Assembly: GCA_965200715.1 (NCBI GenBank) | Contig: OZ241374.1 | Span: 2,917,031-2,981,030, forward strand | Direction of reading: 5' to 3' | DNA from: Arenicellales bacterium | GTDB taxonomy: Bacteria; Pseudomonadota; Gammaproteobacteria; Arenicellales; Poriferihabitantaceae | Length of the DNA stretch: 64,000 nt | In this document: piece by piece, positions 4,756-63,526 of the stretch | Numbering within the stretch: the stretch's first letter is position 1 | How the letters are laid out: the number at the start of each line of letters is the position of its first letter | Position numbers and translations under genes: made by a program | The notes under the pieces: generated by a model | Seen by the model: the letters and a program-made list of their open reading frames with translations, nothing else | Database searches by the model: none | What the model was told of the DNA's origin: nothing

Positions 4756-4779
4756 CGCGGCAGAAACGACCTCTGTCGC
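4750..4779. repeat. Invariant 26-nt porin 5' element (reverse orientation) with palindrome GGCAGA-AACGACC-TCTGTC
   Basis: CATCACCGCGGCAGAAACGACCTCTG is the reverse complement of CAGAGGTCGTTTCTGCCGCGGTGATG, which is found in all six porins. Confidence 0.9.
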
Positions 4780-9307: not shown

Positions 9308-11172
9308 ATGAACAGTCCAGTTAAGCCCTCGAAATCCGATCCACCGCTGCTCAATTTGCGCCTGGTGCGATACGATGAAATGGCGCAATACGATGATTTC
9401 ATGGATCAATACCATCGTCGTGGTGCCTTGAGACGGATCGGTCACGAGCTGCACTATGTGGTGGAAGATCGGGGGCAGTGGATTGCACTGATCAGTTTTT
9501 CTCCGGCCGCGCTGAAGTGTTCGGCCCGAGATCAGTGGATTGGCTTGATCTCGCAAATCCAGAACGACCGGTTGCGGTTTATCGTGAACAATTCGCGCTT
9601 CCTGATTTTGCCCGGTCATGCTGTTCCGAATCTGGGCTCGCGGATTCTGTCGACCTGCCGCAAGCGGCTTGCGAGTGACTGGATGAGGCATTTTTCCCAA
9701 CCGTTGTTATTGCTTGAGACCTTTGTTGATACGGATTTCCACGTGGGAACGATTTATCGTGCCGATAACTGGGTGTTGGCGGGAAAGACCCGAGGCTACC
9801 GGCGGGTGCATGGTGGCTATAGTCCGACTCCGACCGAGTCGGTCAAGTTGGTATTTGTGAAACCCCTGCATGCGGATGCCCAGGTGATCTTGCGAGCCCA
9901 GCCGCTTCCGGATGTGGATCAATATCGAGTGAAGAAGATGAATTTGGCAATTGAAGACTATGGTTCCCTGTACGACTATTTCCAGGGCATGAAGGATGTT
10001 CGCAGTCGCCAGGGCAGACGGCATGAACTGGCCAGCGTATTGTCCCTGATCGCTGCGGCGATGTTAAGTGGTGCGATCGGGTATAAGGGCATCTGGATCT
10101 GGTGCGATGAGTTGTCGCAGGCCAATCGTCGGCATTTCCACTGTCGAAGATGGAGAGGCAAGCGAATCACCCCTTCCATCACCTGTATTCGCAATACCAT
10201 GATCCAGGTGAATCCCGACCGACTGCAACAGCTGGTCAACCGGTTCAGCATCCAGCATTTCGGTTTGCCTTTTGAGCCGCTTGCGATTGATGGCAAGGTG
10301 CTGTGTGGTTCGAAAGGCGAGCACCATCGTCAGACCCAGGTTATGAATGTGGTGGGGCATGATAGTGGGTTTTGCTATGCGAAAAAAAAGTAGGGACGTT
10401 GCCGGTTGAGGGATCAGACGAGGAGAAGCAGTCGAACGAGATCAAGTTTTTCGCCCCGACTCTTGAGCAGATGGATATTGCCGGAAGGACGATCACGGCG
10501 GACGCGATGAATACCCAGATTGCATCGGCCAATTACATGATCGAACGCGGGGCGGATTTTCATTTTTCGGTCAAGGGCAACCAACCCGGTCTGCTCGAGG
10601 ATATCCAGGTCTGGTATGAGCAGCAAGGTCAGTTTCAGGAGCCGGATTTCGAAGAGCCGTTGGAGAAAGATCATGGGCGCATCACGCAACGCAAGATCTG
10701 GGTAACCGATCGGTTGAATGAATAGGTTGAATTCCCACATGTACAACCGGTATTTGTGATTGAGCGAAACGTCAAGGACCCCAAGGGGGAAAATCCAGAT
10801 CGTGTCGAGATCGTGTATGGCATCACCTCGCAGCATCAGGATCAGACAACCGCAGAAGAAATTCTGAAAACCAATAGAGGACATTGGTCGGTCGAGACCG
10901 CCCATCAGGTGCTGGACAATCCGCATGCCTTTGATGAGGACGGCAGCCGCATCCGCTGTGGGCACGGTCCGGAAAACATGGCCTGCATGCGACGTCTTGC
11001 CCTGACCCTGCTGCGCTATTATCAGCAGCGCAATCGTCAACCGATCACGGAACAGATCGAACGACTCAAGTACAACCCGCGACGCGTGCTTGACTATCTC
11101 CGGCTGACTGGCAACACCCGGCCCAGAAGGCGATCACCAACCGAGTGTTGGCCGCTATCGCTGGCTACCTAA
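9308..11172 (+). pseudogene. ISAs1-family (H-repeat-like) DDE transposase with N-terminal DUF4338-like domain, disrupted
   Basis: Three ORF pieces: 9308..10393, 10372..10725 and 10756..11172. N-terminal ARDQWIG..NNSRFLILP..LLLETFVD is homologous to the N-termini of the two 782-aa transposases. AIDGKVLCGS and ITADAMNTQ..FSVKGNQPGL are ISAs1 hallmarks. There is a frameshift at an A8 run (10382-10389) and an in-frame TAG at 10726. Confidence 0.75.
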
Positions 11173-13469: not shown

Positions 13470-13679
13470 GTCAGACTCAACCTCCATTCATCCACCGAAA
13501 ATCGGTGGATGAATGCACTTGTAGTGCCACTCGATTTTTTTAATTGCAAATTATCAATAGGTTGGAACACTACATGTTAAACTTCGGTTATCTTCAATGA
13601 TAGAACTGAAATACCTTCCGATCGGCAATCATGTGGTTGTTGAGTTTTCTACGGAGGTAATGATTTCACGGCAGAGGTC

Positions 13680-13700
13680 GTTTCTGCCGCAAGCGGGTTT
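13680..13700. repeat. Orphan copy of the palindromic element (no porin attached)
   Basis: GGCAGAGGTCGTTTCTGCCGC is identical over 21 nt to the porin-linked copies. It then continues into the X flank instead of GGTGATG. Confidence 0.85.
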
Positions 13701-14867: not shown

Positions 14868-15038
14868 ATCATTACCTCCATTTGTAGTCAGTATAGCGCG
14901 TCATACTGCTGAGATTTGCATGAAGAATAACGCGATAAAATACACTAATCATTTATATATTACCATTTTTTCTGGTATTTTTCATCATAACTGAACCGTA
15001 TGAATTATAAGAAGAAATAAGATGAAAATCCTTAGCGA
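14868..15038. promoter_or_regulatory. S flank module: conserved divergent leader between 14867(-) and the porin element
   Basis: Homologous to 42399..42565 (inverted). It contains a TATACT -10-like box and a GGAGG SD for the minus-strand gene. It also has ATGAAAATCC (15022) facing the porin, but in the +1 frame relative to it. Confidence 0.55.
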
Positions 15039-15064
15039 CAGAGGTCGTTTCTGCCGCGGTGATG
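15039..15064. repeat. Invariant 26-nt porin 5' element
   Basis: CAGAGGTCGTTTCTGCCGCGGTGATG, with the left arm as GACAGA. Confidence 0.9.
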
Positions 15065-17223: not shown

Positions 17224-17234
17224 CTAACCAACCA

Positions 17235-17262
17235 AACCGGGGCGTAACAACCCCGGTTTTTT
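17235..17262 (+). terminator. Rho-independent terminator (conserved family)
   Basis: AACCGGGGCGTAACAACCCCGG followed by T6. Confidence 0.85.
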
Positions 17263-17335: not shown

Positions 17336-18556
17336 ATGAAACCGAAATGCTCAATAGCGATCCTGTTGACCACAATGCTAGCCTTAACAGGTTGCGGGGG
17401 TGGCGGATCGGGCAATGCTGAGCCAGGCAATGAAGCAGCACCACTAGCAAGCGTTTCCAGTACCGGAATACACCACTACGGCATTGATTCGGATGCCCGC
17501 CGGGACTACCGGCGATCCATGTATGATGACTGCGTAGCAGAGAGAGGCCGGTCGCGCTGTTCCCTATCCGGTCGTGGATGGTTTTACCGCTGGAACCAAT
17601 TGCCGAAAGTACATATTTCCTCAAACACTACACAGGAGGGAATATGGGCAATTCGGAGGACAATCGGCATCCTCAACCGTTCTCTACCTGAGGAATACCG
17701 GCTTAGTTACGAAACAACCAACCGGACATTTTCTGGTGTGGATAGGGATGACAGGACATCCCGTGTCGAGTCTCTTGTGCCGAGGGGCGTGATTCATGCG
17801 GAGATCTACCCCTATGATGACCCAGAGTTTAGCGGATGGGCTTGGACCGATGGCGAACGGGGCTATGCCCTTGGCGATGAGACCGATCTTGACCTATCCG
17901 ATCCCTTGGACATGTCCTTTGCGGTGGAGACCATGGCACATGAGTTCCTGCATGCTCTCGGGCTGGTCGCACACCCACAGGAAATCCACACGTCCATCAT
18001 GTCCTATCGCTATCACTCTGAAGGAGAAATTGAGAGAGTGCCGCTGATTGATGTTGCCATGCTCCATGACCTATACGGCTGGGGATTCTGGGATGGGGAA
18101 ATGAAAAGGGTTACCGAGCATGAGGGTGGAGTGCATTTCGGGGTAGATAACCTGCATCGAGGGACTGCCGTCATTCCATGGGTGGATGCAAGATACCTAG
18201 CGGCTCCAAGACCGAATGAATTATCAGATAGTGCATCATACGATGGAACCTTAGTCGGATATGCTACGAATGGAACTGCCCTATATGGTGACTCAGATCT
18301 CAGCATTAACTTTAATCGAGGAACGGGAGTGGCCCGTTTTCACCGGATTACAGACTGGGATGGCAATTCTTGGAATCGAAGTGGCTATCGCTATGATCTC
18401 AGTCTATATGGCCATTACTTCGATTCGACCATAGATTCACAGGATCAAGATGGTATTCTAGATGTGGTCGGGGCGTTCTATGGGTTTGAGGCAGAAACCG
18501 CAGCAGGTACACTTCAAAGACCGGAGATTACCGCCGCTTTTGGTGCGGTTAAGTAA
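17336..18556 (+). CDS. Zinc-metalloprotease lipoprotein (metzincin/serralysin-like) with TbpB-like C-terminal barrel
   Basis: 406 aa. Lipobox LALTGCGGGGS, HEFLHALGLVAHPQEIHTSIMSY (HExxH..G...H plus an SxMSY Met-turn), C-terminal ASYDGTLVGYA..DLSINFN..GVARF..VVGAFYG..AAFGAVK. Confidence 0.85.
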   Translation: MKPKCSIAILLTTMLALTGCGGGGSGNAEPGNEAAPLASVSSTGIHHYGIDSDARRDYRRSMYDDCVAERGRSRCSLSGRGWFYRWNQLPKVHISSNTTQEGIWAIRRTIGILNRSLPEEYRLSYETTNRTFSGVDRDDRTSRVESLVPRGVIHAEIYPYDDPEFSGWAWTDGERGYALGDETDLDLSDPLDMSFAVETMAHEFLHALGLVAHPQEIHTSIMSYRYHSEGEIERVPLIDVAMLHDLYGWGFWDGEMKRVTEHEGGVHFGVDNLHRGTAVIPWVDARYLAAPRPNELSDSASYDGTLVGYATNGTALYGDSDLSINFNRGTGVARFHRITDWDGNSWNRSGYRYDLSLYGHYFDSTIDSQDQDGILDVVGAFYGFEAETAAGTLQRPEITAAFGAVK

Positions 18557-19161: not shown

Positions 19162-20971
19162 TTATGGTTGCTCAACGGCTCCGAATGCGCCGCGATGTCG
19201 TATGTAGGTAAATCCTTCAGGATCAGGATCGGCTGTACTATCATTTTCGGTGGCGGTATTGAGGGTTGTATCAGTGCCATTTGGCTGATAGTCAAAATCA
19301 CCGACAATCCATCGCCCTTGATGTACAAACCTTGCGTTCCAGTCACCAGAATCTTCACTTTGACCATTGTTTATATTGCCAGAGGCCATATAGTTACTGA
19401 TAGCACCTTCCTCAAAGGCTATGGTGTCAGTTGGAATCGGATCATCGTGCCTTCCTCTACTTATGCTTCCGTTAAGAGTATTGTTATCAAAATCAGCAGT
19501 CAATGTTATCTCTCCAATCCAAGGTAAATATTGAGGATCATATACAGGATTTGTGATATCTCCGTCACTTTCTGTAATACCCACAACATCACCTCTATAG
19601 CTTGCCGTTCCAGTTTTCGCACCGAGATACTCCCTTCCGGTTGCGGGTGCGGGGTCATTACCACCAATAGCCGCACCCCCCTCAATAAGTACAGGAACGG
19701 AATCGGTATTGCCAACTATTATCCCACTATCCGAAACCCAGGCCCCAAAACCCATGCGGTCATCGTCATCAAAATCGTTGGCAGCATCATCTTTTGACTT
19801 GCCATATACGGCTATGGCGTATATATTATTACCAGTGTTCTCCGCTCCTCTACCCGGTGCTACAGAAGTCTCGCTAGTTACGCTAATCCAGCCGTGAGTA
19901 TCAACTACCGTAACTTCATGACTTGCACCGCCAAGACCAGAGGATATGTCGATTGTCCATCGGCCCATAGTACCATCACCATTATCGAAAGTAGCATCAT
20001 ACTCAATCTCGGTTGTAGGTCGGTCTGCTAGCACTTCGGGCTGTTCTGGCATCCCAGGAACGTTAGCCCTTATCGCATCGAGACGGGCGGTATAACTCAA
20101 AATAGTACCATCTCCGACCAGCAATTCGTGAGCTTCGGTGTTATCCACACCATCCGCCATGAGTGCTGTTAGTAGCGCTGCATGAAATTCTTCAATATCC
20201 GTAATATCAGTAGTCATGGGAGTTGCTCCTGACTGTTCCTGAACTTCCAGCGCAGTTTTCAGATTCATAACCGCGGTGTTCAATGTCATCTGAGGTGGAA
20301 ACGCAAGCCTTATCGCAGCGAGACGCTGGACATAAGTCATACTAGCCGGAGTACCCGCATCAGCAGCAGTATCTCCGTTCAGCAGATTTTGGGCGGTAGT
20401 ATGCTCTGGGCTACTATCTACACCAGTATCCAGATTGCCTAAGAGGTTTCGTAACATTGTACGTGCAGATACAATGTCCCCAATTTCCTTAGCTGTTGGA
20501 ATTCCATCTTCACCTTCGTCCAATGCCGTCATGAGTGCTGCGGCTGCTTTTCCCAGATCCGCCGCGCTCGTTTTAGCTGGAGGCGGTGGTGGCGGTGGTG
20601 GAGGCCCACCATTACTAGCGACCACCTGATTATCCTCACCCTTTATCTTCTCGAGGCGGCCTTCATACCCATTCAATAGCATGGTGATCTGATCGGTTTT
20701 GGTATCTACTCCGTCCGCCGCATCCTCGATGGCCTTGTCAAGTTCCCCTTTCGCTGTTTCAATGTCCGCAATCTGCTCAGACGTGGGGGTTGTTGCAGCT
20801 TCGGCCTTCTTCAATGCGGTATCTAGTTTCATGACCGCATCATCCAACTTCGTTTGGGCGGCTTGCCTAACTGATTCAGTATCGTCAAGGGTGCCGCCCC
20901 CCCCCCCCTCCGCAACCTGCCAGGGCTAACATGGCCGCCAGTAGTGCGGTTATCAAAATATTCTGTTTCAT
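19162..20971 (-). CDS. Surface lipoprotein with TbpB-like C-terminus; out of frame at a poly-G tract (putative phase-OFF)
   Basis: ATG at 20971 gives MKQNILITALLAAMLALAGCGGGGG, then 12 G put the reading frame into a TGA. The 561-aa body (19162..20847) is in the frame that 11 or 14 G would restore. C-terminus GTASYRGDVVGITE..LTADFDNNTLNGSI..GDWNARF..RHRGAFGAVE. Confidence 0.8.
20897..20908. repeat. Homopolymeric tract, 12 C on plus (12 G in the gene sense)
   Basis: Counted directly: gccg + cccccccccccc + tccgc. It lies 3 codons after the lipobox Cys. Confidence 0.95.
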
Positions 20972-21047
20972 TATTGATTCCCCCTTAAAGGTTCTAGGAA
21001 TGCCCAGCTTTTCATGCTGGTTCCGGTTTCAAACTGATAGAAAAAAA

Positions 21048-21067
21048 CCGGGGTTGTTACGCCCCGG
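21048..21067 (-). terminator. Rho-independent terminator (conserved family)
   Basis: Minus strand: ACCGGGGCGTAACAACCCCGG followed by T7, 17 nt after the stop at 21084. Confidence 0.85.
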
Positions 21068-21083
21068 TTTGTGTTAAGCGTTA

Positions 21084-22468: not shown

Positions 22469-23383
22469 TTAGAAGATGTACCGAAGTCCGATACGGTGGA
22501 TTGCCTCGTAGCTTTCCCTGAGTGCTGCATCATCGTCATCGTCGTTGACCTGTCCTTCATACCAGATTGCTAGGCCGCCGCCCATGTTGTGGAATACACC
22601 GAATGTGGTTGCGGTTGGAGTAGCCTCTCCTCCATCGTCTTCTTGGCCGTAACCAAAATGAACGGAAGTACCATCGGCAACATCTGCACCTAACCACAAA
22701 GTGGTGTAGTCAGTATCGCTAGTAGTTTTGCCCGCCGCATCGGTTTTTTCATTGTTTGTCCATCCCAGAGCACCCCAGAATTGGCCCAGACTAACCTTTC
22801 CAGAAACACCAATCCAATCGCTATCTTTGCTTTCATGCTCGGACATTTCAGCAGCAAATCCTAGTTCAATGTTGTCCGTCAATGACGCTTTGAGGCCAAT
22901 CGCTCCACCATTGCCTGCTGGACCCTGGATATCTGTATCGCTATCGTTGGCTTTCAGGTCAACTTGCAAACTCAAAGGACCAACAGCATTTGCGTACTTT
23001 ATTGTGTTGGAATGCCTAGCTCCGGTAGTTCCACCGATTCCGCCTTCCCAGATGCTCTGATCCATGTGCAACGATCCCTTGAACGCTGCTCCCTGACTCC
23101 CGATCGTAACCTTGCCGAAGCCGCCGGAAAGCCCGACAAAACCAAGACGGGTTGTGTTCTTTCCTGTGGACTGATCGGCAGCAACCTGAATTTCAAGTTG
23201 AGCGTGCCCAACCAGACCGTTTCCAAGATCGCTATTGGCCTTGAATCCAAACCGTGAGCCAAGACTGTCTACATCAACTGTTGACTCTTTGTCACCTTCA
23301 TAGCTCTTGCTAACTAGCGCATTATGAACATGACCGTAAACCGTCAGTTCGCTTTCCGCTTGTACACCAAGCGGGATCATCAC
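22469..23383 (-). CDS. Gram-negative porin family beta-barrel; 5' start unresolved
   Basis: LTVYGHVHNALV, GSRFGFKANSDLGNGLVGHAQLE, NTIKYANAVGPLSLQVDLKA, C-terminal IGLRYIF. Confidence 0.85.
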   Translation of the reverse strand: MMIPLGVQAESELTVYGHVHNALVSKSYEGDKESTVDVDSLGSRFGFKANSDLGNGLVGHAQLEIQVAADQSTGKNTTRLGFVGLSGGFGKVTIGSQGAAFKGSLHMDQSIWEGGIGGTTGARHSNTIKYANAVGPLSLQVDLKANDSDTDIQGPAGNGGAIGLKASLTDNIELGFAAEMSEHESKDSDWIGVSGKVSLGQFWGALGWTNNEKTDAAGKTTSDTDYTTLWLGADVADGTSVHFGYGQEDDGGEATPTATTFGVFHNMGGGLAIWYEGQVNDDDDDAALRESYEAIHRIGLRYIF

Positions 23384-23387
23384 CGCG

Positions 23388-23413
23388 GCAGAAACGACCT
23401 CTGCAACTAATGA
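23388..23413. repeat. Invariant 26-nt porin 5' element (reverse orientation)
   Basis: CATCACCGCGGCAGAAACGACCTCTG. Confidence 0.9.
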
Positions 23414-25149: not shown

Positions 25150-26234
25150 CAGAGGTCGTTTCTGCCGCGGTGATGATCCCGCTTGGAGTTCAAGCGGATG
25201 TGACTGTTTATGGACGTATAAACAATGCAATTGAGCTTGATGATAAGGGAATGCAGCCAAACAAAGGGAAAACTGCATTGGAAGATAATGACTCAACGAC
25301 CGATGTAAGTACCATTGGATCGCGATTTGGCGTCAAAGCGAATTCCGATCTGGGCAATGGTCTGACTGCTCATGGTCATTATGAATTTGCGACCAATACC
25401 GATGACGCTGCGGGTGGAATCACGGCTACCCGTATTGCAACTGCTGGGCTTTCTGGCGGTTTCGGCAGGATTGACGTGGGCAATCAGTGGGGAGCTTTCT
25501 ACAATACGGTTGGCGTTGATATTGATCCGACCTGGTGGATTGGTCCGATTGCAGGTGCCACGCCTGGTCGCTCACCCAACACCATCAAGTATTCAAATTC
25601 GGTCGGTCCGTTGGCTTTGGAAGCGGATTTGCGATTAAGCAATTCTGCCGAAAATGTAAACGCTAAAGGCACCCCGGTGCTTTCCGGTTCGGGGGGTAGT
25701 ATTGGTGTTCGAGTTGCCGCTACTGACAATCTCACGCTTGCCGCCGCCTTTGATTTGGACGACCAGACAGATGTGGTGGTTACTCCTAAGATGGATGCAA
25801 AGTCGGGCGTTAATAAAGCGGGTACCGCACTTGCAGTCATCCCAGCAACGAAAGACGTTATGGGTCTTGAACATACACGTGCTGGCGTTTCTGGGAAGGT
25901 AACCCTTGGTCAGTTCTGGGGTGCTCTGGGATGGAGCAGCCATGAAGCCGAAAACGCAGCTGGGGTCACTCAGGCTGATAAAGAATTCGTTGCGGGCTAT
26001 GTGGGCATGAGTTTTAGCGACAGTAGTTCGGGCTGGATTGGCTATTCGCAGTCTGAAGAAGATAAGCCGAACACCCCGGAGCCAAGCAAGATTACGGCTG
26101 GCTTATATCACAACCTAGGCGGTGGTTTGCAGTTCTGGTATGAGGGTGCATCCGTAGATCCAGATGAAACGATTAATGGCCGTGAGGCAGACAACCATGT
26201 GACTCATTACATCGGCATTCGCTACGACTTCTAA
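25146..26234 (+). CDS. Gram-negative porin family beta-barrel; only a GTG start with an atypical signal peptide
   Basis: MAEVVSAAVMIPLGVQA|DVTVYGRINNAIE, GSRFGVKANSDLGNGLTAHGHYEF, NTIKYSNSVGPLALEADLRL, C-terminal IGIRYDF. There is no SD and no basic n-region. Confidence 0.85.
   Translation: MAEVVSAAVMIPLGVQADVTVYGRINNAIELDDKGMQPNKGKTALEDNDSTTDVSTIGSRFGVKANSDLGNGLTAHGHYEFATNTDDAAGGITATRIATAGLSGGFGRIDVGNQWGAFYNTVGVDIDPTWWIGPIAGATPGRSPNTIKYSNSVGPLALEADLRLSNSAENVNAKGTPVLSGSGGSIGVRVAATDNLTLAAAFDLDDQTDVVVTPKMDAKSGVNKAGTALAVIPATKDVMGLEHTRAGVSGKVTLGQFWGALGWSSHEAENAAGVTQADKEFVAGYVGMSFSDSSSGWIGYSQSEEDKPNTPEPSKITAGLYHNLGGGLQFWYEGASVDPDETINGREADNHVTHYIGIRYDF
25150..25175. repeat. Invariant 26-nt porin 5' element
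   Basis: CAGAGGTCGTTTCTGCCGCGGTGATG, preceded by GG, which gives a perfect GGCAGA/TCTGCC palindrome. Confidence 0.9.
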
Positions 26235-27769: not shown

Positions 27770-27782
27770 TAAACCAACATAA

Positions 27783-27808
27783 ACCGGGGCGTAACAACCC
27801 CGGTTTTT
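27783..27808 (+). terminator. Rho-independent terminator (conserved family)
   Basis: ACCGGGGCGTAACAACCCCGG followed by T6. Confidence 0.85.
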
Positions 27809-27889: not shown

Positions 27890-29709
27890 AATGAAACAGA
27901 ACATTTTACTATCCGCCCTGTTGTCGACCATGCTGGTGATTGCAGGTTGCGGTGGAGGCAGCTCCTCGGATGGCGGTAAGATTGAAGATGGGCGGTAAGA
28001 CCCTGAGTGAAATCTACCAGTCTGCAATCACCGATGGGGAGGAACACACGTTTGATATGGTATTGTCCGCATCGGTTCTTCAGAATCAAGATTCTGACAA
28101 TCCTTCAACTTCGATTCCTGAAAACAACGAATTATCAGTTTCACAAATCGTGAGGAATGAGGATGGTGGTTATGATGTCACCTACCGCATTGATGATTCT
28201 TCTGAGACTGTAACTTTCTTGCCTAGTGATTGTAACAATCAAGATGAAGAATGCGTTTTATCGAATGAAGAAGGTCAACGAGAATTTGATATTTGGGCAA
28301 TGCCTAGTACGGAAGAAGGTACAGGTCAACTCGGCCCCGCCGCAAATCTTGTCTATCATAATATCAAACATTTTCAAGTTCATGGAACAACTTCTAGCGA
28401 TGAAAGAATTCTTCACAAGCAAATATTTGTCTTTGGCGTAACGACTCCAGAGTCAAATCAACCCAAAACGGGAACGGGAACCTACTACGGTTGGTTTTTC
28501 GGTTATGCGAATCGAATGACAGAGGCAGGTAATGCCTTCCGGCAACGAATTATGGCAGACATGCAGTTGGTAGCGAATTTTGACATGAACACCATCAATG
28601 GGGATTTGACTGGGGTTGAAGGAACACCACCAGGAGGAAATAACAATTCATGGGAAGATTGGCAGGAGGAAAGTCGTTTTGAAATCACCGGTACTGGAGT
28701 GAATTCAGCGGGGCAGTTCACGGCTACCGTAACCGGGATGGATGCTTCTACTGCGGATGACGTTGAAAGTGTACGGGGATTCATGGGTCAACTCACAGCG
28801 CAATTATTTGGCCCGAATGCCGAGGAAATTGGCGGGGTATTGAGTGCATCTCGTGATTTGGACGGTGATGATAATGACCTTGCTTTGTATGGTTATGTTT
28901 CGAGTACCAAATTCGGCCCTGCCAAGATACTTAGTTCCGAAGGTGTATCCGTTGGAGTCAAAAGAAATTTTGAGGAGAGTAAGACCGAACTACAGGAACA
29001 AGGCGAGGTCAAAATTATGAGAGATGCCGGTGATAGTGGTTGGGTGCTCACTACTGATGCTCGTACAGTCGAATTCGAAGACGAAGATTACCGGTATGGA
29101 GAGGGAAATTATTTTCGAGCTAGTGCTGCAGATGACGCGCAAGATGGCGATTATTTTTGGACGAATACTAATGGTTTTTTCGTTACCCCTGACTATGATT
29201 ACTTCGACATCAAGGGCTGGGCAAATAATCATGACAATCCAGGGATTTGGGTAAACAGTTTTATCATTCATGGTGATCGGACACCCATCTCATCCCTGCC
29301 TTTTTCAACCGCGACCTATCATGGGCGGATGCACGGTCGAGAGTTTCCATCTGATGATGCAATTAGTTGGATATCCGAAGCAAGGCGTTATCAAGGTGAT
29401 TTGACTCTGACCGCAGATTTTGCAAATACGAGTGTGATGGGTGAGATAACGAATCTAGAAACTCGAGTAGGAAATAGCGGTAGTTATAGTGACATTCAAG
29501 GAGGTGCTCGTTTCAATGCATCGATCACTGGTCACAATTTCACGGCTGATGATTTTAGTGGAACAGGGGATATATCGAATCTACAAAATGGCAATGTCTA
29601 CGGTTCGTTTTTTGGTCCTACAGCCCAGGAAGCCGGTGGGGTTTTTGATGCGGACCTTGGAAGCGACGTTGTCGTTGGTTATTTCGGTGCAACTCAGGAG
29701 AATGAATAG
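27890..29709 (+). pseudogene. Bilobed TbpB-like surface lipoprotein, frameshifted just after the lipobox
   Basis: ATG at 27890 gives MKQNILLSALLSTMLVIAGCGGGSSSDGGKIEDGR, then TAA at 27995. The 589-aa body (ORF 27940..29709) is in another frame. There are two barrel-like lobes, each ending in a FGP..AEE.GG motif (QLFGPNAEEIGGVL and SFFGPTAQEAGGVF..VVGYFGA). Confidence 0.8.
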
Positions 29710-29829: not shown

Positions 29830-31049
29830 ATGGAACAGAAACACACAATAGTGATCCTATTAGTCTTAATGCTTACCCTTGTAGGCTGTGGGGGCGGTTC
29901 TATCGGTATTGACAGCTCTATCCGGTGAACCAAACCGGACGCGAGCAAGGCGCGGTTTCATGGTCTGAGGCACACCACAAAGGCATTGGTCCTGATGCCC
30001 GTCAAGATTACCGTCAAGCGATGTATGAGGATTGCACGCTTGACCGTGAGGACTGTTCCTTATCTGGAGATGGATGGTTTCATGCTTGGAACCAATTACC
30101 CGAAGTTCATGTATCCTCAAATAGCACACAACAGGAAGTCTGGGCAATCCGGAGGGCAATCGGCATACTCAACCGATCCCTTCCCGTGGAATATCGGCAT
30201 ACCTATCAAATAACCCGCCGAACCTTTTCCGGCGTGGGTAGGGATGATCAGGTAGAGCGTTCCAAGTCTCTTGTACCGGAGGGTGTGATTCATGTAGAGA
30301 TTTATCCGTATGACGATCCAGAATCCGGCGGGGTAGCATGGACGAATGGTGAAAGGGGTTATGCGCTTGGAGATCGGGTCAATTATGATCTTTCTACCCC
30401 TCATGGCATGAGGGCTTTGATCGATACCATGGTGCATGAATTCCTTCATGCTTTCGGCCTTAGCGGGCATCCACACGCAGTGCATACCTCGATCATGTCT
30501 TATCGTCATCACAGGGAAGGAGAGCTAGACAACGTACCCCTGTATTGATGTGGCCATGCTCTATGACCTCTATGAATGGGGCTATTGGGATACCGACATG
30601 AAAAGGGTAGCAGATCATGCGGGCGGGGTACATTTTGGAGTACACAGTTTGCACCAGGGAACGGCCGTCATTCCGTGGGTAGATGCCGGACACATAGCAC
30701 CCCGAGATTGGATGAGCTGTCAGGCCGAGCATCGTATAGCGGCACCCTGATTGGATATGCTGATGACGAACCTGTACATGGTGACGCAGATCTCAGCATT
30801 AACTTTAATCGAGGAACGGGAGAGGCCCGTTTTCACCGGATTGCGGACTGGGATGGCAATTCTTGGAATCGAAGTGGCTATCGCTATGATCTCGGCTTAT
30901 ATGGCCATTACTTCGATTCGACTATAGATTCACAGGATCAAGATGGTATTCCAGATGTGGTCGGGGCGTTCTATGGGTTTGAGGCGGAAACCGCAGCCGG
31001 TACACTTCAGAGGCCGGAGATTACCGCCGCTTTCGGTGCGGTTAAGTAA
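29830..31049 (+). pseudogene. Zinc-metalloprotease lipoprotein paralog, multiply frameshifted
   Basis: Pieces at 29830..29928 (MEQKHTIVILLVLMLTLVGCGGGS), 29925..30548 (HEFLHAFGLSGHPHAVHTSIMSY), 30550..30750 and 30576..31049 (..AAFGAVK) lie in different frames. Collinear with <1..1146. Confidence 0.85.
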
Positions 31050-31185
31050 GGATTCGTTTTTTCAGTTTTCAGCTTAGTTGTAATTCAGTTTTTCAGTTCT
31101 TCGCAACGATCCTGAAACACCTTTTTAGCAGCTTATAACAAATTGGTTTCAACGCTGATTACCCTTCCAAGCAGATAGAAAAAAA

Positions 31186-31205
31186 CCGGGGTTGTTACGC
31201 CCCGG
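31186..31205 (-). terminator. Rho-independent terminator (conserved family)
   Basis: Minus strand: CCGGGGCGTAACAACCCCGG followed by T7, downstream of the stop at 31227. It could also serve the convergent plus-strand gene. Confidence 0.8.
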
Positions 31206-31226
31206 TTTGTATAGTTTGGTTATTGG

Positions 31227-32781: not shown

Positions 32782-33789
32782 TTAGAAGTCGTAACGGATA
32801 CCGATGAAGTGCTTAACATGATCATCTGTACCGGCTTTATCTTTATCCTCGGATCCGCCCTCATACCAGAAAATCAGTCCTCCACCCATATTGTGATACA
32901 GGCCCGCGGCAATCTTGCTCGGCTCGGCCATATCATTTTCGGTTTCGGCGGTTGAGTAGCCAATCCAACCCGAAGTGCTATCCGAAAAGCTCATGCCTAC
33001 ATAGCCTGCAACATGTTCCTGGTCGGGCTGGGCAACTCCAGAGCTGTTTTCCGATTCATGTCTGCTCCATCCGAGTGCTCCCCAGAACTGGCCAAACGAA
33101 ACCTTGCCGGTAATCGCAGCACGGTTGTGTTCGAGACCATTCTCTTCTTTTCCATCTTCTTTCACTGATCCATCCAGATTCCAGGTCGGTTGAGTGGTGT
33201 ATTTGATGTCGGTCTGATCGTCGACATCAAAAGCCGCCGCAACCGTAACATTGTCAGTTGCATTAACTCGGATGCCAATGCCACCGCCGTTGCCGGATAG
33301 GCTCGTGCCTTCACCACCCTCATCACCAAAACGCAAGTCTGCTTCTAAGGACAGCGGGCCGACTGAATTCGAGTACTTGATGGTATTAGGAGATCGGAAC
33401 GGAGTCGGACTACCCACTGGCCCGATGGTATAGGTCGGATCAAGGTCTACCCCGACCGAGTTATAAAAGGCACTCCACTGATTACCGACATCAACCCGAC
33501 CAAAACCACCGGAAACCCCGGCGGTTGCAATCCGGGTTGAAAGGACTCCGTCCGCACCGTCATCGGTATTGGTCGCAAACTCGTAATGGCCATGAGCGGT
33601 CAAGCCATTGCCAAGATCCGATTCTCCCTTAATACCAAAACGCGATCCAACGGTGCCGATGTCGGCTGTTGAGTCATTCATACCGCCCTTATCTTCCAGA
33701 ACGATCGCATTATTAACACGACCGTAAACAGTCGCCTCCGCCTGTACTCCAAGCGGCAACATCACCGCGGCAGAAACGACCTCTGCCAC
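32782..33789 (-). CDS. Gram-negative porin family beta-barrel; only a GTG start with an atypical signal peptide
   Basis: MAEVVSAAVMLPLGVQA|EATVYGRVNNAIV, GSRFGIKGESDLGNGLTAHGHYEF, C-terminal IGIRYDF. Confidence 0.85.
   Translation of the reverse strand: MAEVVSAAVMLPLGVQAEATVYGRVNNAIVLEDKGGMNDSTADIGTVGSRFGIKGESDLGNGLTAHGHYEFATNTDDGADGVLSTRIATAGVSGGFGRVDVGNQWSAFYNSVGVDLDPTYTIGPVGSPTPFRSPNTIKYSNSVGPLSLEADLRFGDEGGEGTSLSGNGGGIGIRVNATDNVTVAAAFDVDDQTDIKYTTQPTWNLDGSVKEDGKEENGLEHNRAAITGKVSFGQFWGALGWSRHESENSSGVAQPDQEHVAGYVGMSFSDSTSGWIGYSTAETENDMAEPSKIAAGLYHNMGGGLIFWYEGGSEDKDKAGTDDHVKHFIGIRYDF
33760..33785. repeat. Invariant 26-nt porin 5' element (reverse orientation)
   Basis: CATCACCGCGGCAGAAACGACCTCTG followed by CC, which gives a perfect palindrome. 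Confidence 0.9.
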
Positions 33790-34120: not shown

Positions 34121-34382
34121 ACCCTCGCAAATTGTGATGGTTGTGGTTCAGCGTCATTTCTTTATACAACACTTGTACTTCCCTAATCCTGAAAGAAAAA
34201 CATGAGAGCACCCCAATGTTCTTATGTGGTATGGATTTGGAGGGGCTAGCGTTTCACCTAATAGATGACCTCATTTCTGGCATCGAAACCCACTGTAAAT
34301 AATACTTTACAAATATACAAAGAACTCGATTTAAGGATTAGGGTACTTTCATTATGTGCGGTATTACCGTACACTATAGGCT

Positions 34383-34673
34383 ATGATTATTCGCTCTATA
34401 CGCCATCGGGGATTAAAATTGCTGTTTGAAAAGAATTCCACACGGTTGTTAAGACAGGACCAGGTAGTACGGTTGCGAACTGTTTTATTCTCGCTGGAAA
34501 TCGCGGAAAGCATTGAGGATTTCAACAACAATGCCATGCCAGGATGGCGGGTTCACCGGCTGTCAGGAGAACGCCATAATGAATGGAGTATAGCCATATC
34601 GAAGAACTGGCGCATTACCTTTAAAGAATGTGACAATGCAATTGAGCAGTTAAATTTGGAGGACTACCACTGA
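34383..34673 (+). CDS. higB: HigB-like (RelE/ParE superfamily) toxin
   Basis: 96 aa: IRSIRHRGLKLLFE....HRLSGERHNEWSIAISKNWRITF, the typical killer-protein HigB layout. Its stop overlaps the next start (ATGA). Confidence 0.75.
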   Translation: MIIRSIRHRGLKLLFEKNSTRLLRQDQVVRLRTVLFSLEIAESIEDFNNNAMPGWRVHRLSGERHNEWSIAISKNWRITFKECDNAIEQLNLEDYH

Positions 34674-34978
34674 TGACAAAAAGCGGAATCAAAATGGGAA
34701 TGATGCCCCCGCAACCCGGAGAAGTCATTCGGACTGAAATCCTCGAGGAACTTGGATTGAGCGTTTCAGAGGCGGCCCGGATTCTTGGTGTCCGACGTGC
34801 GACGCTGTCGGATTTAGTAAACGGCAATTCCTCTTTATCACCAGAAATGGCGTTACGGATTGAAAAGGCATTCGGACCCAGCATGGACTATCTACTCAAG
34901 ATGCAGGCAATGCATGATGCAGGACAGATGCGGAAGCGCTCCAGCGAGGTGGACATTCAGCGTTATCAGCCGAAATAA
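34673..34978 (+). CDS. higA: HigA-like XRE-family HTH antitoxin
   Basis: PGEVIRTEILEELGLSVSEAARILGVRRATLSDLVNGNSSLSPEMALRIEKAFG is the canonical HigA/VapI HTH. Confidence 0.8.
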   Translation: MTKSGIKMGMMPPQPGEVIRTEILEELGLSVSEAARILGVRRATLSDLVNGNSSLSPEMALRIEKAFGPSMDYLLKMQAMHDAGQMRKRSSEVDIQRYQPK

Positions 34979-35689
34979 CCGTATAGCATGTCTATTGGCT
35001 TCGACAGGGAAATCTCATTTGACAACACCCACACTGCTCCCACATACCCATTCACATGTAATTGTCGAGTCTAAGTGTTGTCCAATGACAAATGGGCCTG
35101 CCTGAACGAAAGGCATAATTCCAGTGTGAAATTAACCTGCTGAGGTCAACACTAGCAGTCGGAAAAACCGACTCAAAGTAGAATTGTCAGATTAAACGAC
35201 TTTTGCGTTTCCTTGATGGCTCTTGATATGACGAAATTTCATGAAACAAGACAACTGACAATTCAGGAGGTTTCTTGCTCTATCTTCCCATAATGGATAT
35301 AACCCATTATCCATACCGAATCGGACATAGGGTTGGCGAAAAAATAAAATATCATTTTGACGCGTAATAGTGTCATTATTTTTTCGATTCTCGGTTTCTT
35401 CTAACCGGTTTTCGGGTTTATACCGGTTATTCTCCTTCAAAATCGCAAGAACAGATCAGGGAATCTCCTATAATTGATCGGTGATTTCCTGCATTTGATT
35501 CTTATTATGACATTATAATATTTACTCCAGATTATTTCTATTCGATGTTTCATCGAATACAGTGGTTTCTTCTTATTCATCATATGAGGAAACAATGATA
35601 TGCAAATCATTCTGGATCAATTCCAGGAATACCCATATAGTCCTTCGATTACTACGCGTCAAGTTCAGACTAACCGCGATCCTATGTGA

Positions 35690-35998
35690 ACTCAGCCCTC
35701 AAACCGAGACTCCTACCCGTCTACTTGAGCGGGTAGCAGAACCCGGCTCAATGGGAATCTCTCAAGCCCAAATCCAATCCGCTACCATCGCCTCCATCTC
35801 CACTACTTCGAAAGCCGAAATACCATCCGTCCGAGAGCCGACTCCAATTACCGATTGGACCAATCCGGTGCGGACAATAGGGATACCATGACTACTTGGA
35901 AAAAGAAACCAAAACTATCCAGCACAATCTGGGACAAACTGTCCCATTCCTTTCAATTTAATCTGGGAATCGAGTTCTGACTTATTGCGGAAAATAAC
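35690..35998. repeat. Solo inverted copy of the transposon left end (about 310 nt)
   Basis: Reverse complement of 44059-44365, including the CTACCCG..CGGGTAG hairpin. It ends ..CGGAAAATAACA at 35998. Confidence 0.8.
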
Positions 35999-36336
35999 AC
36001 CAGATACAATATAACTCCCATCATTTTCGAAAGTCGAAATATTTACTCGTAGGAGATTGTATAACAGGCGAGATTGCAATATTGTGGAACTGACCTGAGA
36101 ATGACCGTCTGGTCTAAAATGAAGTTGCTTTACTGTTCAGTGGACGTGCTACCCAAAGACATTGGCATGATTTTTCTCGCGATATACTGGAATTTTCTTT
36201 AAAACTCATATATCATGCTATAATTCTATAAGGATACAGTTAGTTATATATTCAATAATTAGTTTTTCTTACTCTAAAAGGCCTTATTTAGTGTCGTATA
36301 TTTGCGCTTAGATGGTATCATTACAGGAGCAGAATT

Positions 36337-46882: not shown

Positions 46883-47872
46883 TTACCCCCCAAGGACTGC
46901 CATTAGTCCGTCCTTGACGCCCTTGAAAGACCCGGCTCGAATCGAAGGCGGAATCGTTGTATGCATGATCTGCAGTTTTTCAGCCGGAGTCGCATTCAGA
47001 TACGCTTCGGTCGATTTGATGCTCGCATGACCCAGCCACAAAGACACCTTACGAATGTCACCTGTCGCATGCAATATCGCCATTGCTGAGGAATGCCGAA
47101 GGCAATGTGGGGTAATGTGCTTGTCGGCCAGCGAGGGAACGAGTTTGCTCGCCTCGGCAACATATTTGCCGAGCAGGTAGGAAACGCCATCGGTACTCAG
47201 TGCGCGACCTCGAGCACTGACAAATAACCAACGGCACTCGAGGGTCGGTCGCACGGCCAACCAGCTACCCAGTGCATCGATGGTCTCGTTCCAAAGTGGT
47301 AGTTCCCGTTCACGCCGACCCTTGCCCATGACCCGTACGCTGCGAAATTCGGGACCGACTAAGCTTTCCAGCGTCATCGAGGTTAACTCGGAAACCCGAA
47401 GCCCAGCGGCATAACACAAGTGGAACATCGCCCGGTCGCGAACGCCGCCGGGTTGTTTGATGTTCGGGGCATCCAGAATCGCTTGCACCTCGTGGGCCTC
47501 CAGCCAATCAATCAGTGGCCTTTCGGTGCGCCTTTGCACAATCGCTTGCACTTGTCTTGCCTGTTCCAGGCAGGTCGGTTCGCGATATTCAAGATAATGG
47601 AAGAATGACTTGACCGATGCCAGTCGAACGTTGCAGGTACTGCGACGGCAGTTTTGCACATGTTCCAGTGAATTCAACCAATCGTACACCAGTGCAGCAC
47701 TGAGTTGTTCGATCTTCAGTTGGCAAGGACGGATACGGTGCTGTTTTGCTGCAAAGCGAACGAGTAGCCGGAAACTGTCGGTATAGCTTTGCACGGTGTG
47801 CTGACTGCAACCCCGCTCATTGGGCAGATGCTGTTGCAGAAAATCGCTCAACAAGGTGGCCAGCTTAGTCAT
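46883..47872 (-). CDS. Tyrosine recombinase (RIT third gene)
   Basis: 329 aa. ..RAMFHLCYAAGLRVSEL.., HCLRHSSAMAIL, LGHASIKSTEAYL (R..HxxR..Y pattern). Confidence 0.85.
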   Translation of the reverse strand: MTKLATLLSDFLQQHLPNERGCSQHTVQSYTDSFRLLVRFAAKQHRIRPCQLKIEQLSAALVYDWLNSLEHVQNCRRSTCNVRLASVKSFFHYLEYREPTCLEQARQVQAIVQRRTERPLIDWLEAHEVQAILDAPNIKQPGGVRDRAMFHLCYAAGLRVSELTSMTLESLVGPEFRSVRVMGKGRRERELPLWNETIDALGSWLAVRPTLECRWLFVSARGRALSTDGVSYLLGKYVAEASKLVPSLADKHITPHCLRHSSAMAILHATGDIRKVSLWLGHASIKSTEAYLNATPAEKLQIMHTTIPPSIRAGSFKGVKDGLMAVLGG

Positions 47873-48785
47873 GGTAACCTCCGAGTCGATTGAAGTGATC
47901 CTGTTCCGTTTGAGCGGCGATCCGGTTCAGCAGTACCGGTGTCGATTGCAGATACCAATAGGTGCTTGCCACCCCGTTGTGTCCCAACGTCGTAGCAAGT
48001 GCCAGAATGTGGCGATTGACGTCGGCACCGGCAGGCAGGTTTTCCAGCGATCGGACGACAAATGAATGGCGCAACGAGTGCAACGTCGGCCGATAACCGG
48101 CCCGTTCATCACGAATTCCCGTGTCTATGGTCAGTCGTCGGAACATGGCTATTGCCTGGGCCGCGCTCGGAGGGCGACCGGAAGCGAGAATGAATAGATG
48201 TTGGTCGGTGCTACCGAGCTGGTTCCGAACCGCAATGTATCGGTTCAGTTGATCGACGGTAGTCGGGGCAAGCACGACGATCCGAGATTTCTTGAATTTG
48301 GTTTCCCGAATGAACAGACCGTCGGGAGCAACATCGTCAAGCGTCAGTCGGATGGCTTCGCCAAGGCGCATTCCGGTAACCGCGACCAGACCGAACAGAC
48401 AATACCAGGTTAACCGAGTGATGGTAGCCGCCGGCGAAATACCGAGGGCCGCCGACAACACGGTTCGAATCTGCTCGACCGACATCAGGTGCGGTGCGGG
48501 TCGAGTGTTCGGGTATGGCCCGAATGCGTCCGCGGGCGGCACTGCATGCCGCGAATCCTCAGCGTGTAGCCAAAGCGCAAAGGAATGCGCGACTCGCAGT
48601 CGCCGCACCCGAGCATAGCGGGAAATCCCTTGCGATGCCCACTCCAACAGAGTGTGTGAGCAGATAAACTCGTCGTTGACTGCAAATCGCACAAACGATC
48701 GGAGGATTTTCGCATGACCTTCGAACCGGTAGCCCAGTTGCTGCTTGGTCTCGACATATCGTCGCACATGATCAGCCAGCTTCAT
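47865..48785 (-). CDS. Tyrosine recombinase (RIT second gene)
   Basis: GMRLGEAIRL, HSLRHSFVVRSL, LGHNGVASTYWYL. I trimmed the start to the ATG at 48785; the ORF track extends to 48848. Confidence 0.8.
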   Translation of the reverse strand: MKLADHVRRYVETKQQLGYRFEGHAKILRSFVRFAVNDEFICSHTLLEWASQGISRYARVRRLRVAHSFALWLHAEDSRHAVPPADAFGPYPNTRPAPHLMSVEQIRTVLSAALGISPAATITRLTWYCLFGLVAVTGMRLGEAIRLTLDDVAPDGLFIRETKFKKSRIVVLAPTTVDQLNRYIAVRNQLGSTDQHLFILASGRPPSAAQAIAMFRRLTIDTGIRDERAGYRPTLHSLRHSFVVRSLENLPAGADVNRHILALATTLGHNGVASTYWYLQSTPVLLNRIAAQTEQDHFNRLGGYHD

Positions 48786-50367
48786 TGCACTCCTCCCCGA
48801 TCCACGCTTGAGCGACTTCCTGCAACATGGTCGTATCGGTTTTCGCATAGATCATGGTGGTTTGAACACTCCTGTGTCGAAGTAACGATGCGATCACCTC
48901 TAACGAAGCACCGGATCGGAGCAGTGTCGTCGCCTGACTATGTCGAAACACATGAGCGCCGCGGTTACCAACAGTCTCGATCCCTGCACGGTCCAGAGCA
49001 CGGTGCGCAATCGAAGTCACGGTGCCCGGATGGCCAAGTGGCCGATACGGCGCACGTGCGGTGTAAAATAACGCTTGTGTAGCTAGGTTCGACTGGTCTT
49101 GCAGCGGGCGCGAGTGGCGGATGTAGTGGCTGATTGCGTCGCCCACATCCTGAGGAAGCGGTAGCACGGTCCAGCACGGTGATTTGCCTAACACACGAAT
49201 CTCGGCCCGATCCCAGTCGATATCGCCGATGCGCAAGGCAACAATATCGCCCGCACGAAGTCCCAACCGTGCAAGCAACAATAATACGGCCCGATTGCGG
49301 ATCCCCACGCGATGGTCCTTACAGGTTGCAATCGCACGTTCGACGTCGTCAGCACTGATGTACTGAGGCAAGGATGCGAGCCGCCACTGTGGGATGGTCG
49401 GCACGGCAGCGAGTAGCGCCGGAGATACGCGGTCTTCGAATACCAAAAAGCGCAGATACATCCGCGTCGCGATTGCGAGTCGCCGGATATAAGGCAAGGA
49501 ACGCCCGCTGGTTAGCCCACCGTTGAATACCTGATGAATCATGGCCGCGTTGTAGGCCTGCGGATTGTCTCCAATTTCCGATTGCAACAAACGTATCAGC
49601 AATCGGTAGCGACGAATCGTCTTTGCCGTGATACCACGATAATGCTCAAGCCAGTTGGCAAAACGCTCCATCTCTTCGGTCATCATGGGCTCATGGTGTG
49701 GTGGCTGCCACCCGCTCACTTCACCAATCTCGATGAGATAATTCACAAAACCAGACACTTCCTTGAGCGAGGCAGGAGTGCAATAACGCCTCCTGAAGCC
49801 ATGGAACATGCCCGGAATGGAACAGACCAGCTGTCTTTCACGAAACTGTTCCAGGGTCTGTTCGGTCAGTTCCGTGAGACGAATTCTTGACCAGTGCAAC
49901 CAGATAATCAGGCTGGACGACGCAGTATGGTAGGGTCGAATAGTCAACTCGGAATAACCACTGGCGCGCAGTCCATCAAGGTATTGGTCGAGTAGCTGGA
50001 AATTGTGCTGCAGGTCGTCTGGCACCGGAACCCGATTGGTGCGTTCAAGGAAGCAGATGAAACGGATTAGGTTCGGTGCAGAACGCCGTTTTCGCCATTG
50101 AGAAAATCCGACGGGTGCCGGAACGCTCGTGATGCATCGGCAGTCATGTTGCAAAAAACGCTCAATGACCGTTGCGTCAATCTGCTCAAGTGCCATGCCG
50201 GACAGTTCAAGCCAGGTGAGAAAATGGCGGATCAGCGGCCTGCTATTCTGTATGCTTGACTTGGCAACCTGCATGGTTTTGAAGTCGTCGGCAAACTCGT
50301 CAATGATCGCATTGAAGTCATCCCGCAACATTGGGGCAACGGGCTGACAATGATGGCTTTTAGACAT
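48772..50367 (-). CDS. Tyrosine recombinase, large (RIT first gene)
   Basis: GLRAGDIVALRIGDID, HVFRHSQATTLL, LRHRSVQTTMIYAK. I trimmed the start to the SD-preceded ATG at 50367. Confidence 0.8.
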   Translation of the reverse strand: MSKSHHCQPVAPMLRDDFNAIIDEFADDFKTMQVAKSSIQNSRPLIRHFLTWLELSGMALEQIDATVIERFLQHDCRCITSVPAPVGFSQWRKRRSAPNLIRFICFLERTNRVPVPDDLQHNFQLLDQYLDGLRASGYSELTIRPYHTASSSLIIWLHWSRIRLTELTEQTLEQFRERQLVCSIPGMFHGFRRRYCTPASLKEVSGFVNYLIEIGEVSGWQPPHHEPMMTEEMERFANWLEHYRGITAKTIRRYRLLIRLLQSEIGDNPQAYNAAMIHQVFNGGLTSGRSLPYIRRLAIATRMYLRFLVFEDRVSPALLAAVPTIPQWRLASLPQYISADDVERAIATCKDHRVGIRNRAVLLLLARLGLRAGDIVALRIGDIDWDRAEIRVLGKSPCWTVLPLPQDVGDAISHYIRHSRPLQDQSNLATQALFYTARAPYRPLGHPGTVTSIAHRALDRAGIETVGNRGAHVFRHSQATTLLRSGASLEVIASLLRHRSVQTTMIYAKTDTTMLQEVAQAWIGEECNEAG

Positions 50368-50572
50368 AAGATATTCTCCGAAATAACCAAGAATATAGCC
50401 TGCCTGTCCGCCGATGTCGAAACGGCATAGCACCAGACAATGGCGAAGAATATGGCCAACAGTAATGCCGAGTAAAAATAGGCTTCAACCCACTTCAATC
50501 AAGGCTTCGTTCCTCATTACTCGGCATTACTATTAACTCGGCATTACTGCATTAATGCCGAGCTCGACATTA

Positions 50573-54881: not shown

Positions 54882-54907
54882 CAGAGGTCGTTTCTGCCGC
54901 GGTGATG
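54882..54907. repeat. Invariant 26-nt porin 5' element
   Basis: CAGAGGTCGTTTCTGCCGCGGTGATG. Confidence 0.9.
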
Positions 54908-55921: not shown

Positions 55922-56058
55922 CCGATATTGATTTAGAGGAAATAAACAATGAAACAGAAAATATACATAGCGGCCCTATTAGCCGGTATGCTGGCACTCG
56001 CAGGTTGTGGGGGTGGGGGTAGCTCTGGTGGAGGTGGTAATCCTCCGGGGGGCGGACC

Positions 56059-63111: not shown

Positions 63112-63526
63112 TGTCGCGATCAGTGCTTCGTCATGGAAAGGCGTGAAGTTCCGTTTAGCGGCGTGGTTACGGGTTCAAGATGCTATGTTGTTTATTAAAA
63201 TATGGGTTGTGTTCATCGTTGTATATTGGCTCTAACTCTTCAATCAATTCTTTTTCAATTTTTTTCTACGTTTAGAAGAGACGCTACAAGAGACCGAAAC
63301 AACCCTAAATTGGCTCAATAAATCACTAACTTTTTCATAGCAAATAGGAGCTATTTTTTCAACTTTCATGATATTTAGCCTAAGTGAACTACCTAAATCA
63401 TTTACTTGAACCTCTATCCTTTCGGCCATATCTCCGCTTTCTCCTACGTATACGACCTCGTTATTATGGAAAAATGCATCGTATATTTTTTTGTAGATTT
63501 ATCCATTGGCATCTACCTTAAAAAAA

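Follow-up and report, generated by a model that had tools for sequence, protein, structure and literature searches.

A 12-G tract next to the lipobox cysteine as a candidate phase-variation switch of a TbpB-like surface lipoprotein gene in an Arenicellales bacterium

The stretch of DNA analysed here, 64 kb of contig OZ241374.1 from an Arenicellales bacterium (the window), carries on its minus strand a lipoprotein gene that is put out of frame by a run of twelve G at 20897-20908, seen as C12 on the plus strand. Direct reading of the minus strand gives the order ATG (20971) AAA CAG ... GCA GGT TGC (20914-20912) GGA (20911-20909) G12 CGG CAC CCT TGA (20887-20885), and the product as assembled is a stub of 28 amino acids (aa), MKQNILITALLAAMLALAGCGGGGGRHP, followed by the stop. 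The tract and the broken frame had been recognised in the initial annotation, which placed the tract three codons after the lipobox Cys; it starts only one codon, the GGA, after the Cys codon. The gene had also been read correctly from the ATG into the TGA, but the stub sequence that was given left out the RHP before the stop. The body of the gene is an open reading frame (ORF) of 561 aa (19162-20847). When the tract was replaced in silico, 8, 11 or 14 G opened one continuous ORF down to 19162, of 601, 602 or 603 aa respectively, and all other lengths gave stubs of 27-48 aa, so the predicted return of the body frame at 11 or 14 G was borne out, and 8 G works too. The tract is the sole lesion between an intact signal peptide and an intact body of about 575 codons. 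As asked of a contingency gene, a G/C homopolymer of at least about 9 is found in the 5' coding region, and one G more or less toggles an otherwise intact ORF.

Apart from the G12 tract, runs of G or C in the window (48.8% GC) do not exceed 6, the next-longest being six C6 and two G6, and a first-order Markov model gives an expectation of 0.0014 G or C runs of 12 or more. Furthermore, GGG is the rarest Gly codon (13%), and four of them in succession have a probability of about 3e-4. In about 25 paralogous lipoprotein genes, from the window and from related loci, the Gly linker is written in mixed codons with no run, which implies that the pure G run is specific to the poly-G module and stands against the codon bias. 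The closest paralog of the poly-G gene, at 59791-61236, was said to have GGAGGGGGCGGAAGT and no run; this is correct, but its lipobox position holds TCC (Ser) and not Cys, while the ortholog in contig L005 has TGC.

The tract was compared with six homologous alleles from metagenome contigs (L001, L002, L006, L007, L008 and L009), whose DNA was read directly, and the effective tract length was taken as the number of bases that separate the Cys codon from CGGCACC. The window allele, GGA followed by G12, has an effective length of 15 and is OFF. L001 (TGT GGA G11, effective length 14) is ON and encodes 843 aa, and L002 (TGT G11, effective length 11) is also ON. The same effective length of 11 is seen in L008 and L009, which are locked ON with an interrupted run, TGT GGA GGG GGC GGC (GGAGGGGGCGG). 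L007 (TGT G13, effective length 13) is OFF, as is L006 (TGT GGA G13, effective length 16), where a different sequence follows downstream. All three frames are present among the alleles, ON at 11 or 14 and OFF at 13 or 15, plus 16 in L006. A comparison with other strains had been proposed in the initial annotation; the lengths differ between the homologous alleles and are not uniformly 12. Lengths that vary between conserved flanks, with ON and OFF both seen, are what characterise a contingency gene, and some of the contigs compared have low coverage (ctg..._3x, _6x, _13x and _16x). L005, L007 and L010 match the window in part at 97.5-99.7% identity, which implies that at least some of the comparison contigs come from conspecific strains. 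L002, L008 and L009 are short-read-style assemblies and L001, L006 and L007 long-read-style contigs, and since the run or its interrupted form is found in both, the tract exists independently of the platform.

The OFF alleles were also visible among the called proteins. P0001 is an N-terminally truncated call for the poly-G gene of the window itself, starting at an internal Met; in L007 the gene caller likewise began at an internal Met (P0009), and the protein called for L006, P0013, starts within the signal peptide but in a wrong frame. This is a warning for annotation, since OFF alleles become truncated or wrong-frame "proteins". In L010 (4560-4640) it was possible to observe a G13 run where an insertion sequence (IS) with a DruA-DDE transposase joins a 5'-truncated paralog (P0012); the 5' end of this gene has been replaced by the IS, and it is now read from a new ATG, without a signal peptide.

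The family of homologues is rare. In the first word-indexed protein search poly-G and poly-P words dominated, and 8 proteins were obtained, P0001 among them; a profile search gave 240 at E<=1e-3. A second word-indexed search, with the N-terminal module as query, returned P0019 alone. No relatives were found when the GTDB representative contigs were scanned with the lipoprotein alignment, which implies that the source species is not among the representatives, or that its representative is without the family. A scan of JGI metagenomes for the flank of the module returned nothing, and a G13 run in L030 was discarded as it lies in an unrelated high-GC context.

In a three-way alignment, the window allele shares only about 60% identity with L001 and L002 over the upstream region and the codons of the signal peptide. 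The three then become nearly identical for about 80-115 nt, counted from the first G of the run (the tract module is about 98% identical across genes), and beyond this module the genes diverge to about 35% protein identity. The upstream region and signal peptide of the window allele instead match the 59791-type gene in L005 (92%) and LP27891, the lipoprotein gene at 27891-29709. The module, the G run and then CGGCACCCTTGACGATACTGAATCAGTTAGGCAAGCCGCCCAAA, was found in several different genes, and the C-terminus of the window gene aligns with the ON homologues through to the end. A conserved module in diverged backbones implies that the tract-bearing module has been recombined into different backbones with the pure G run kept. 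This argues that the G run is maintained and not accidental.

The restored protein would consist of a lipoprotein signal (LAGC), a poly-Gly linker, three alpha-helical repeat modules of about 80 residues each, a poly-Pro spacer and a beta-rich C-terminal half. Its signal peptide, MKQNILITALLAAMLALAG before the Cys, has a signal peptidase II signal and the lipobox Cys, and a signal peptide of the same type is present on 11 lipoprotein genes in the window. A model of the full body was weak, with a predicted local distance difference test score (pLDDT) of 57.5, and was replaced by an AlphaFold2 model of the last 294 aa from an alignment of 19 sequences (pLDDT 81.5, predicted template-modelling score (pTM) 0.83). 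When this C-terminal model was compared with the PDB by Foldseek, all 13 matches at E<=1e-3 were to NHBA, HpuA, fHbp or TbpB. The best was the NHBA C-domain, with a template-modelling (TM) score of 0.74-0.76 and a root-mean-square deviation of 3-4 Å, then HpuA, fHbp and the TbpB C-lobe, and LbpB and the haemophore HphA came next at E<=3e-3. A profile search against the PDB sequences gave no match and the fold comparison was needed; the Pfam match to HpuA (PF16960) was below the gathering threshold (17.7 against 29.7 bits, E=0.0024). Paralogs in the window match Pfam TbpB_B_D and FHBP_C directly. The gene had been called a lipoprotein gene from the start, which agrees with the signal peptide, the lipobox and the modelled surface-lipoprotein fold, and by its predicted structure the protein is classed as a TbpB-like surface lipoprotein (SLP). 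A handle and an eight-stranded barrel define the family of SLPs that depend on Slam (PMC5449769). No DUF560/Slam gene was found among the window ORFs of at least 150 aa that were scanned, and no TonB-dependent receptor among the window genes scanned; the neighbours of the poly-G gene are a Porin_4 gene and another lipoprotein gene. The protein is not classed as HpuA proper, in view of the sub-threshold Pfam match together with the lack of an adjacent HpuB TonB-dependent receptor.

With GTGC(C/G) on one side and TAGCC on the other, the run in hpuA follows the lipobox Cys codon directly, and the gene is ON at run lengths of 7, 10, 13 and upwards in steps of three (PMC3786947). The initial annotation had likened the position of the window tract to that of hpuA, and both runs do sit at the lipobox Cys codon. 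As in hpuA of Neisseria meningitidis and N. gonorrhoeae, part of the HpuAB haemoglobin-haptoglobin receptor, a coding poly-G tract follows the lipobox Cys codon of a single-lobe surface lipoprotein with handle and barrel, the gene is ON at every third length, and a polymorphism at the 5' edge of the run, GGA versus GGG here and C/G in hpuA, alters the absolute but not the effective length (PMC3786947). HpuA structures are among those matched by Foldseek (9mr0 and 5ec6). Unlike hpuA, the window gene has porin and lipoprotein genes in the place of an HpuB-type neighbour, the protein has a long N-terminal region with three helical repeats and a poly-Pro spacer, and the host is an uncultured Arenicellales/Poriferihabitaceae-like bacterium and not a human pathogen. 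The similarity extends to the Slam (DUF560, type 11 secretion)-dependent proteins TbpB, LbpB, fHbp, NHBA and HphA, which share the lipobox, a flexible Gly-rich linker and a C-terminal eight-stranded barrel after a beta-rich handle (PMC5449769), but the genes here are arranged in porin-lipoprotein cassettes and not in Slam/TonB-receptor clusters. The poly-G/C loci of Campylobacter, Helicobacter, Haemophilus and Bordetella also have a run of at least 9 in the 5' coding region of a gene for a surface structure, with strain differences in length that put the gene in or out of frame; those genomes contain tens of such loci, and only one is visible in the 64 kb here.

We consider it likely, at roughly 70%, that the G12 run is a simple-sequence contingency switch by which slipped-strand mispairing turns the gene ON and OFF. 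Poly-G contingency loci, where replication slippage gives reversible ON/OFF expression, are well established. In the window gene, slipped-strand mispairing during replication would gain or lose one G, reversibly and at some rate, and this would bring the lipoprotein body into the reading frame of the signal peptide and lipobox or take it out again. A gene with 11 or 14 G, if transcribed, would give a lipoprotein of about 600 aa with a lipid anchor, poly-Gly linker, three helical repeats, poly-Pro spacer and a TbpB/HpuA-like handle and barrel, which may be exposed at the surface, bind a ligand and be under selection by host cells or phage. With 12 or 13 G a stub of 28 or 47 aa would be made, and a product begun at an internal Met would be without the export signal. 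The assembled genome represents the OFF state.

Several observations weigh against this. The tract lengths compared are assembly consensus values and not read distributions, and as the closest relatives are HiFi-style metagenome-assembled genomes (MAGs) and several of the comparison contigs have a coverage of 3-16x, a difference of one or two G could be a consensus error. A scan for the sigma-70 consensus between the strong terminator hairpin upstream and the ATG gave no promoter (a good Shine-Dalgarno sequence does lie ahead of the ATG), and there is no further simple sequence repeat locus within the window. At least four other members of the family in the window are broken, and in a decaying family the OFF state could be merely another dead copy.

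The first of these points leads to the explanation that survives best beside the switch, namely that the true tract is 11 or 14 G, that the gene is simply ON, and that the frameshift is an artefact of a long-read consensus. Long G runs are a classic weak point of long-read data, and the source lies on a 2.99-Mb contig, with chromosome-level MAGs of Candidatus Poriferihabitans and Poriferihabitaceae (Arenicellales) from sponge genome projects as its nearest genomes, which suggests a long-read assembly; the low coverage of the comparison contigs points the same way. But indels do not pervade the assembly, as the window's other long ORFs (837, 782, 782, 614 and 594 aa) are unbroken, and the run is also present in the short-read-style assembly L002, as G11. 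Even if 12 is wrong, a coding run of 11-14 G remains hypermutable, and such an error would touch the current state of the gene and not the mechanism. We regard it as a rather unlikely explanation.

It is less probable still that the gene is a plain pseudogene, in a family that erodes in a transposon-rich region, where the frameshift is one more lesion without any adaptive switching. Such erosion can be seen nearby: a 19-nt insertion has put LP27891 out of frame, at least three frameshifts are present in the copy at 29831-31050, an IS interrupts LP55949, the lipobox Cys of LP59791 is replaced by Ser, and the porin upstream of the poly-G gene is without a start. A dead gene would, on the other hand, be expected to gather interruptions and further lesions, and the poly-G gene has a single lesion, situated exactly in the mutable run, with about 575 codons open. 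ON alleles with the same module exist, and the pure G run has been retained in at least five alleles despite the codon bias. Recoding, in which slippage of RNA polymerase or a ribosomal frameshift at the G run would constantly leak some full-length protein with no switch in the DNA, appears very improbable, for although long homopolymers can cause transcriptional slippage, which rescues poly(A)-frameshifted genes in endosymbionts, there is no stimulatory element here, and the alleles differ in their DNA in all three frames, which fits DNA slippage and is unneeded for recoding.

Homopolymer phase variation of surface lipoproteins is textbook knowledge for human mucosal pathogens, and to our knowledge it is hardly documented in uncultured animal symbionts; literature searches on phase variation, whether in this lineage or among sponge symbionts, turned up nothing of relevance. 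The system is of a known kind, a probable poly-G phase-variable surface lipoprotein with the TbpB fold, and what is unusual is the host-associated lineage and the porin-linked cassette context. If the switch is real, a sponge-associated bacterium of the Poriferihabitaceae type would apply the same device as hpuA to a lipoprotein of the TbpB fold whose partners are porins rather than TonB receptors, which would point to selection on the surface by host recognition or phagocytosis, or by phage. The distribution of tract lengths would then also be a simple marker, at the level of reads, of population dynamics inside the host. The features of the gene and its cassette are collected in Table 1.

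Table 1. Features of the poly-G lipoprotein gene and its cassette, in window positions
Feature	Position	Strand	Remarks
C-terminal 294 residues and stop: beta-rich handle and 8-stranded barrel, ends GAFGAVEQP	19162..20046	-	AlphaFold2 model, Foldseek
N-terminal body in the frame of 11 or 14 G: conserved module GTLDDTESVRQAAQTKLDDAVMKL, three alpha-helical repeat modules, mixed-codon poly-Pro spacer (about 20578-20601)	20047..20896	-	
TGA ending the 28-aa OFF product at 12 G	20885..20887	-	
G12 homopolymer, proposed slipped-strand switch, encodes the start of the poly-Gly linker	20897..20908	-	GGA codon 20909-20911 precedes
Signal peptide MKQNILITALLAAMLALAGC, lipobox LAGC, Cys codon TGC 20912-20914	20912..20971	-	
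Shine-Dalgarno-like AAGGGGGA	20979..20986	-	7 nt upstream of ATG; read from sequence
Intrinsic-terminator hairpin AAACCGGGGCGTAACAACCCCGGTTT and T run, between upstream lipoprotein gene and poly-G gene	21045..21070	-	
Upstream lipoprotein gene of the same cassette, 451 aa, MKQKIYIAALLAGMLALAGCGGGSSS, mixed Gly codons	21084..22439	-	
Porin_4 gene of the cassette, 19-mer CAGAGGTCGTTTCTGCCGC at 23385-23403, no proper start codon or signal-peptide N-region before it	22469..23403	-	
Copies of the 19-mer	4757-4775, 13672-13690, 15039-15057, 23385-23403, 25150-25168, 33767-33785, 54882-54900		also in L001-L010, L011-L017

No housekeeping genes are present in the window, whose porin-lipoprotein cassettes, at least six in number, are interspersed with transposases (DruA-Tn5-type fusions), toxin-antitoxin genes and a trio of tyrosine recombinases. 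The cassette order is porin, lipoprotein, terminator and poly-G lipoprotein, and the poly-G gene is the third gene of its cassette in the window as well as in L001 and L007. When the GTDB representatives were scanned with a porin profile, Candidatus Poriferihabitans sp. OZ244855.1 came out best (87% at the aa level), and other MAGs of the Poriferihabitaceae and Arenicellales matched less well. A Neisseria-like origin was rejected, as the uptake sequences of Neisseriaceae and Pasteurellaceae are absent from the window.

The porin genes share a 19-mer with a dyad-like structure, GGCAGA-GGTCGTT-TCTGCC, of which the window contains seven copies against 0 expected. The mutual homology of all six Porin_4 genes in the window begins exactly at this 19-mer, with no usable start codon upstream, and the sequences upstream of the porin 19-mers are unrelated to each other; the seventh copy (13672) is an orphan followed by non-porin DNA. 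In relatives the 19-mer falls inside the coding region of the signal peptide, MNKKLIAAAVSAAVMAPVAAQA. The site at 15039 (14960-15060; L005 2700-2800) is the only porin site with AT-rich DNA, a ribosome-binding site and an ATG ahead, ATGAAAATCCTTAGCGA followed by the 19-mer. Its ATG is +1 out of frame with the porin, having A4 where the full-length relative L016 has ATGAAAAAATCC (A6). As A4 is also found in L005, an independent assembly, it is not a sequencing error. In the related genome OZ244855.1 one full-length porin copy (L016, MKKSLVAAAVSAAVMMPVGAQA) was found together with several that are truncated at the same point.

It was also possible to observe identical upstream halves joined to different downstream halves in different conspecific contigs. 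For instance, L007 1-2171 matches window 34121-36290 at 99.7% but bears a different cassette. These arrangements suggest that the porin copies form a silent-cassette or site-specific exchange system. The porins resemble in this the silent cassettes of Mycoplasma pulmonis vsa and M. bovis vsp, with many 5'-truncated surface genes, a short common site in the signal-peptide coding region, and identical flanks joined to different cassettes in different strains, a likeness that concerns the porins and not the tract. Unlike vsa and vsp, no recombinase is linked to the porin site, no alternative junctions were seen within one sample, and the window's one porin copy with an ATG is not in frame. In the relative, L015 and L016 differ from each other and so give no direct evidence for gene conversion. 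A scan of JGI metagenomes for the 19-mer gave six chance matches only, in unrelated high-GC contexts. The stretch from the orphan 19-mer to the porin site with the ATG holds two small genes, which have no Pfam match and are not recombinase-like.

More tentatively, and doubtful at present, the surface may vary in two layers. Dozens of porin and TbpB-like-lipoprotein cassettes would be silent copies, each cut at the 19-bp site within the coding region of the porin signal peptide, and would be exchanged there between an expression site and fixed chromosomal flanks. Independently of this, the G run would toggle the third gene in some of the cassettes, and the module would spread among the paralogs by recombination.

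A near-identical terminator hairpin, AAACCGGGG-N8-CCCCGGTTT with a T run, is reused after many of the cassette genes (1172-1199, 17233-17260, 21044-21071, 27780-27807, 31182-31209 and 63523-63550), and the same hairpin is found in the metagenome loci and in the related species (L014-L017).

Some of the paralogous lipoprotein genes deserve a closer description. The product of 27891-29709 has clear TbpB_B_D/FHBP_C domains, with the signal peptide out of frame with the body; the lesion is a 19-nt insertion or partial duplication, GATGGCGGTAAGA TTGAA GATGGGCGGTAAGA, and does not lie at a homopolymer. The copy at 29831-31050 is a clear pseudogene of a 406-aa lipoprotein with a zinc-metalloprotease motif (the HEFLHALGL family), of which intact copies are found at 17336-18556 and 61891-63111. 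At 55949-59671 the lipoprotein gene starting at 55949 is broken after 49 codons by an IS that encodes a 782-aa DruA-domain/Tn5-type transposase (56183-58531), and the C-terminal remainder is an ORF at 58514-59671. The 59791 paralog contains a 246-bp tandem duplication (59910-60373) of a helical repeat module, and its ortholog in L005 is split into ORFs of 80 and 362 aa.

The three tandem tyrosine-recombinase genes (329, 327 and 553 aa) at 46883-50433 adjoin AAA/TniB-like and Toprim/DUF3991 genes and are a mobile element of the recombinase-in-trio type, for which no link to the 19-mer site was established. Transposases with an N-terminal Druantia DruA-like domain (PF14236) and a downstream DDE/Tn5 part are encoded at 9308-10393, 51776-54124 and 56183-58531, and also in L001 and L010, and several copies are present in the lineage.

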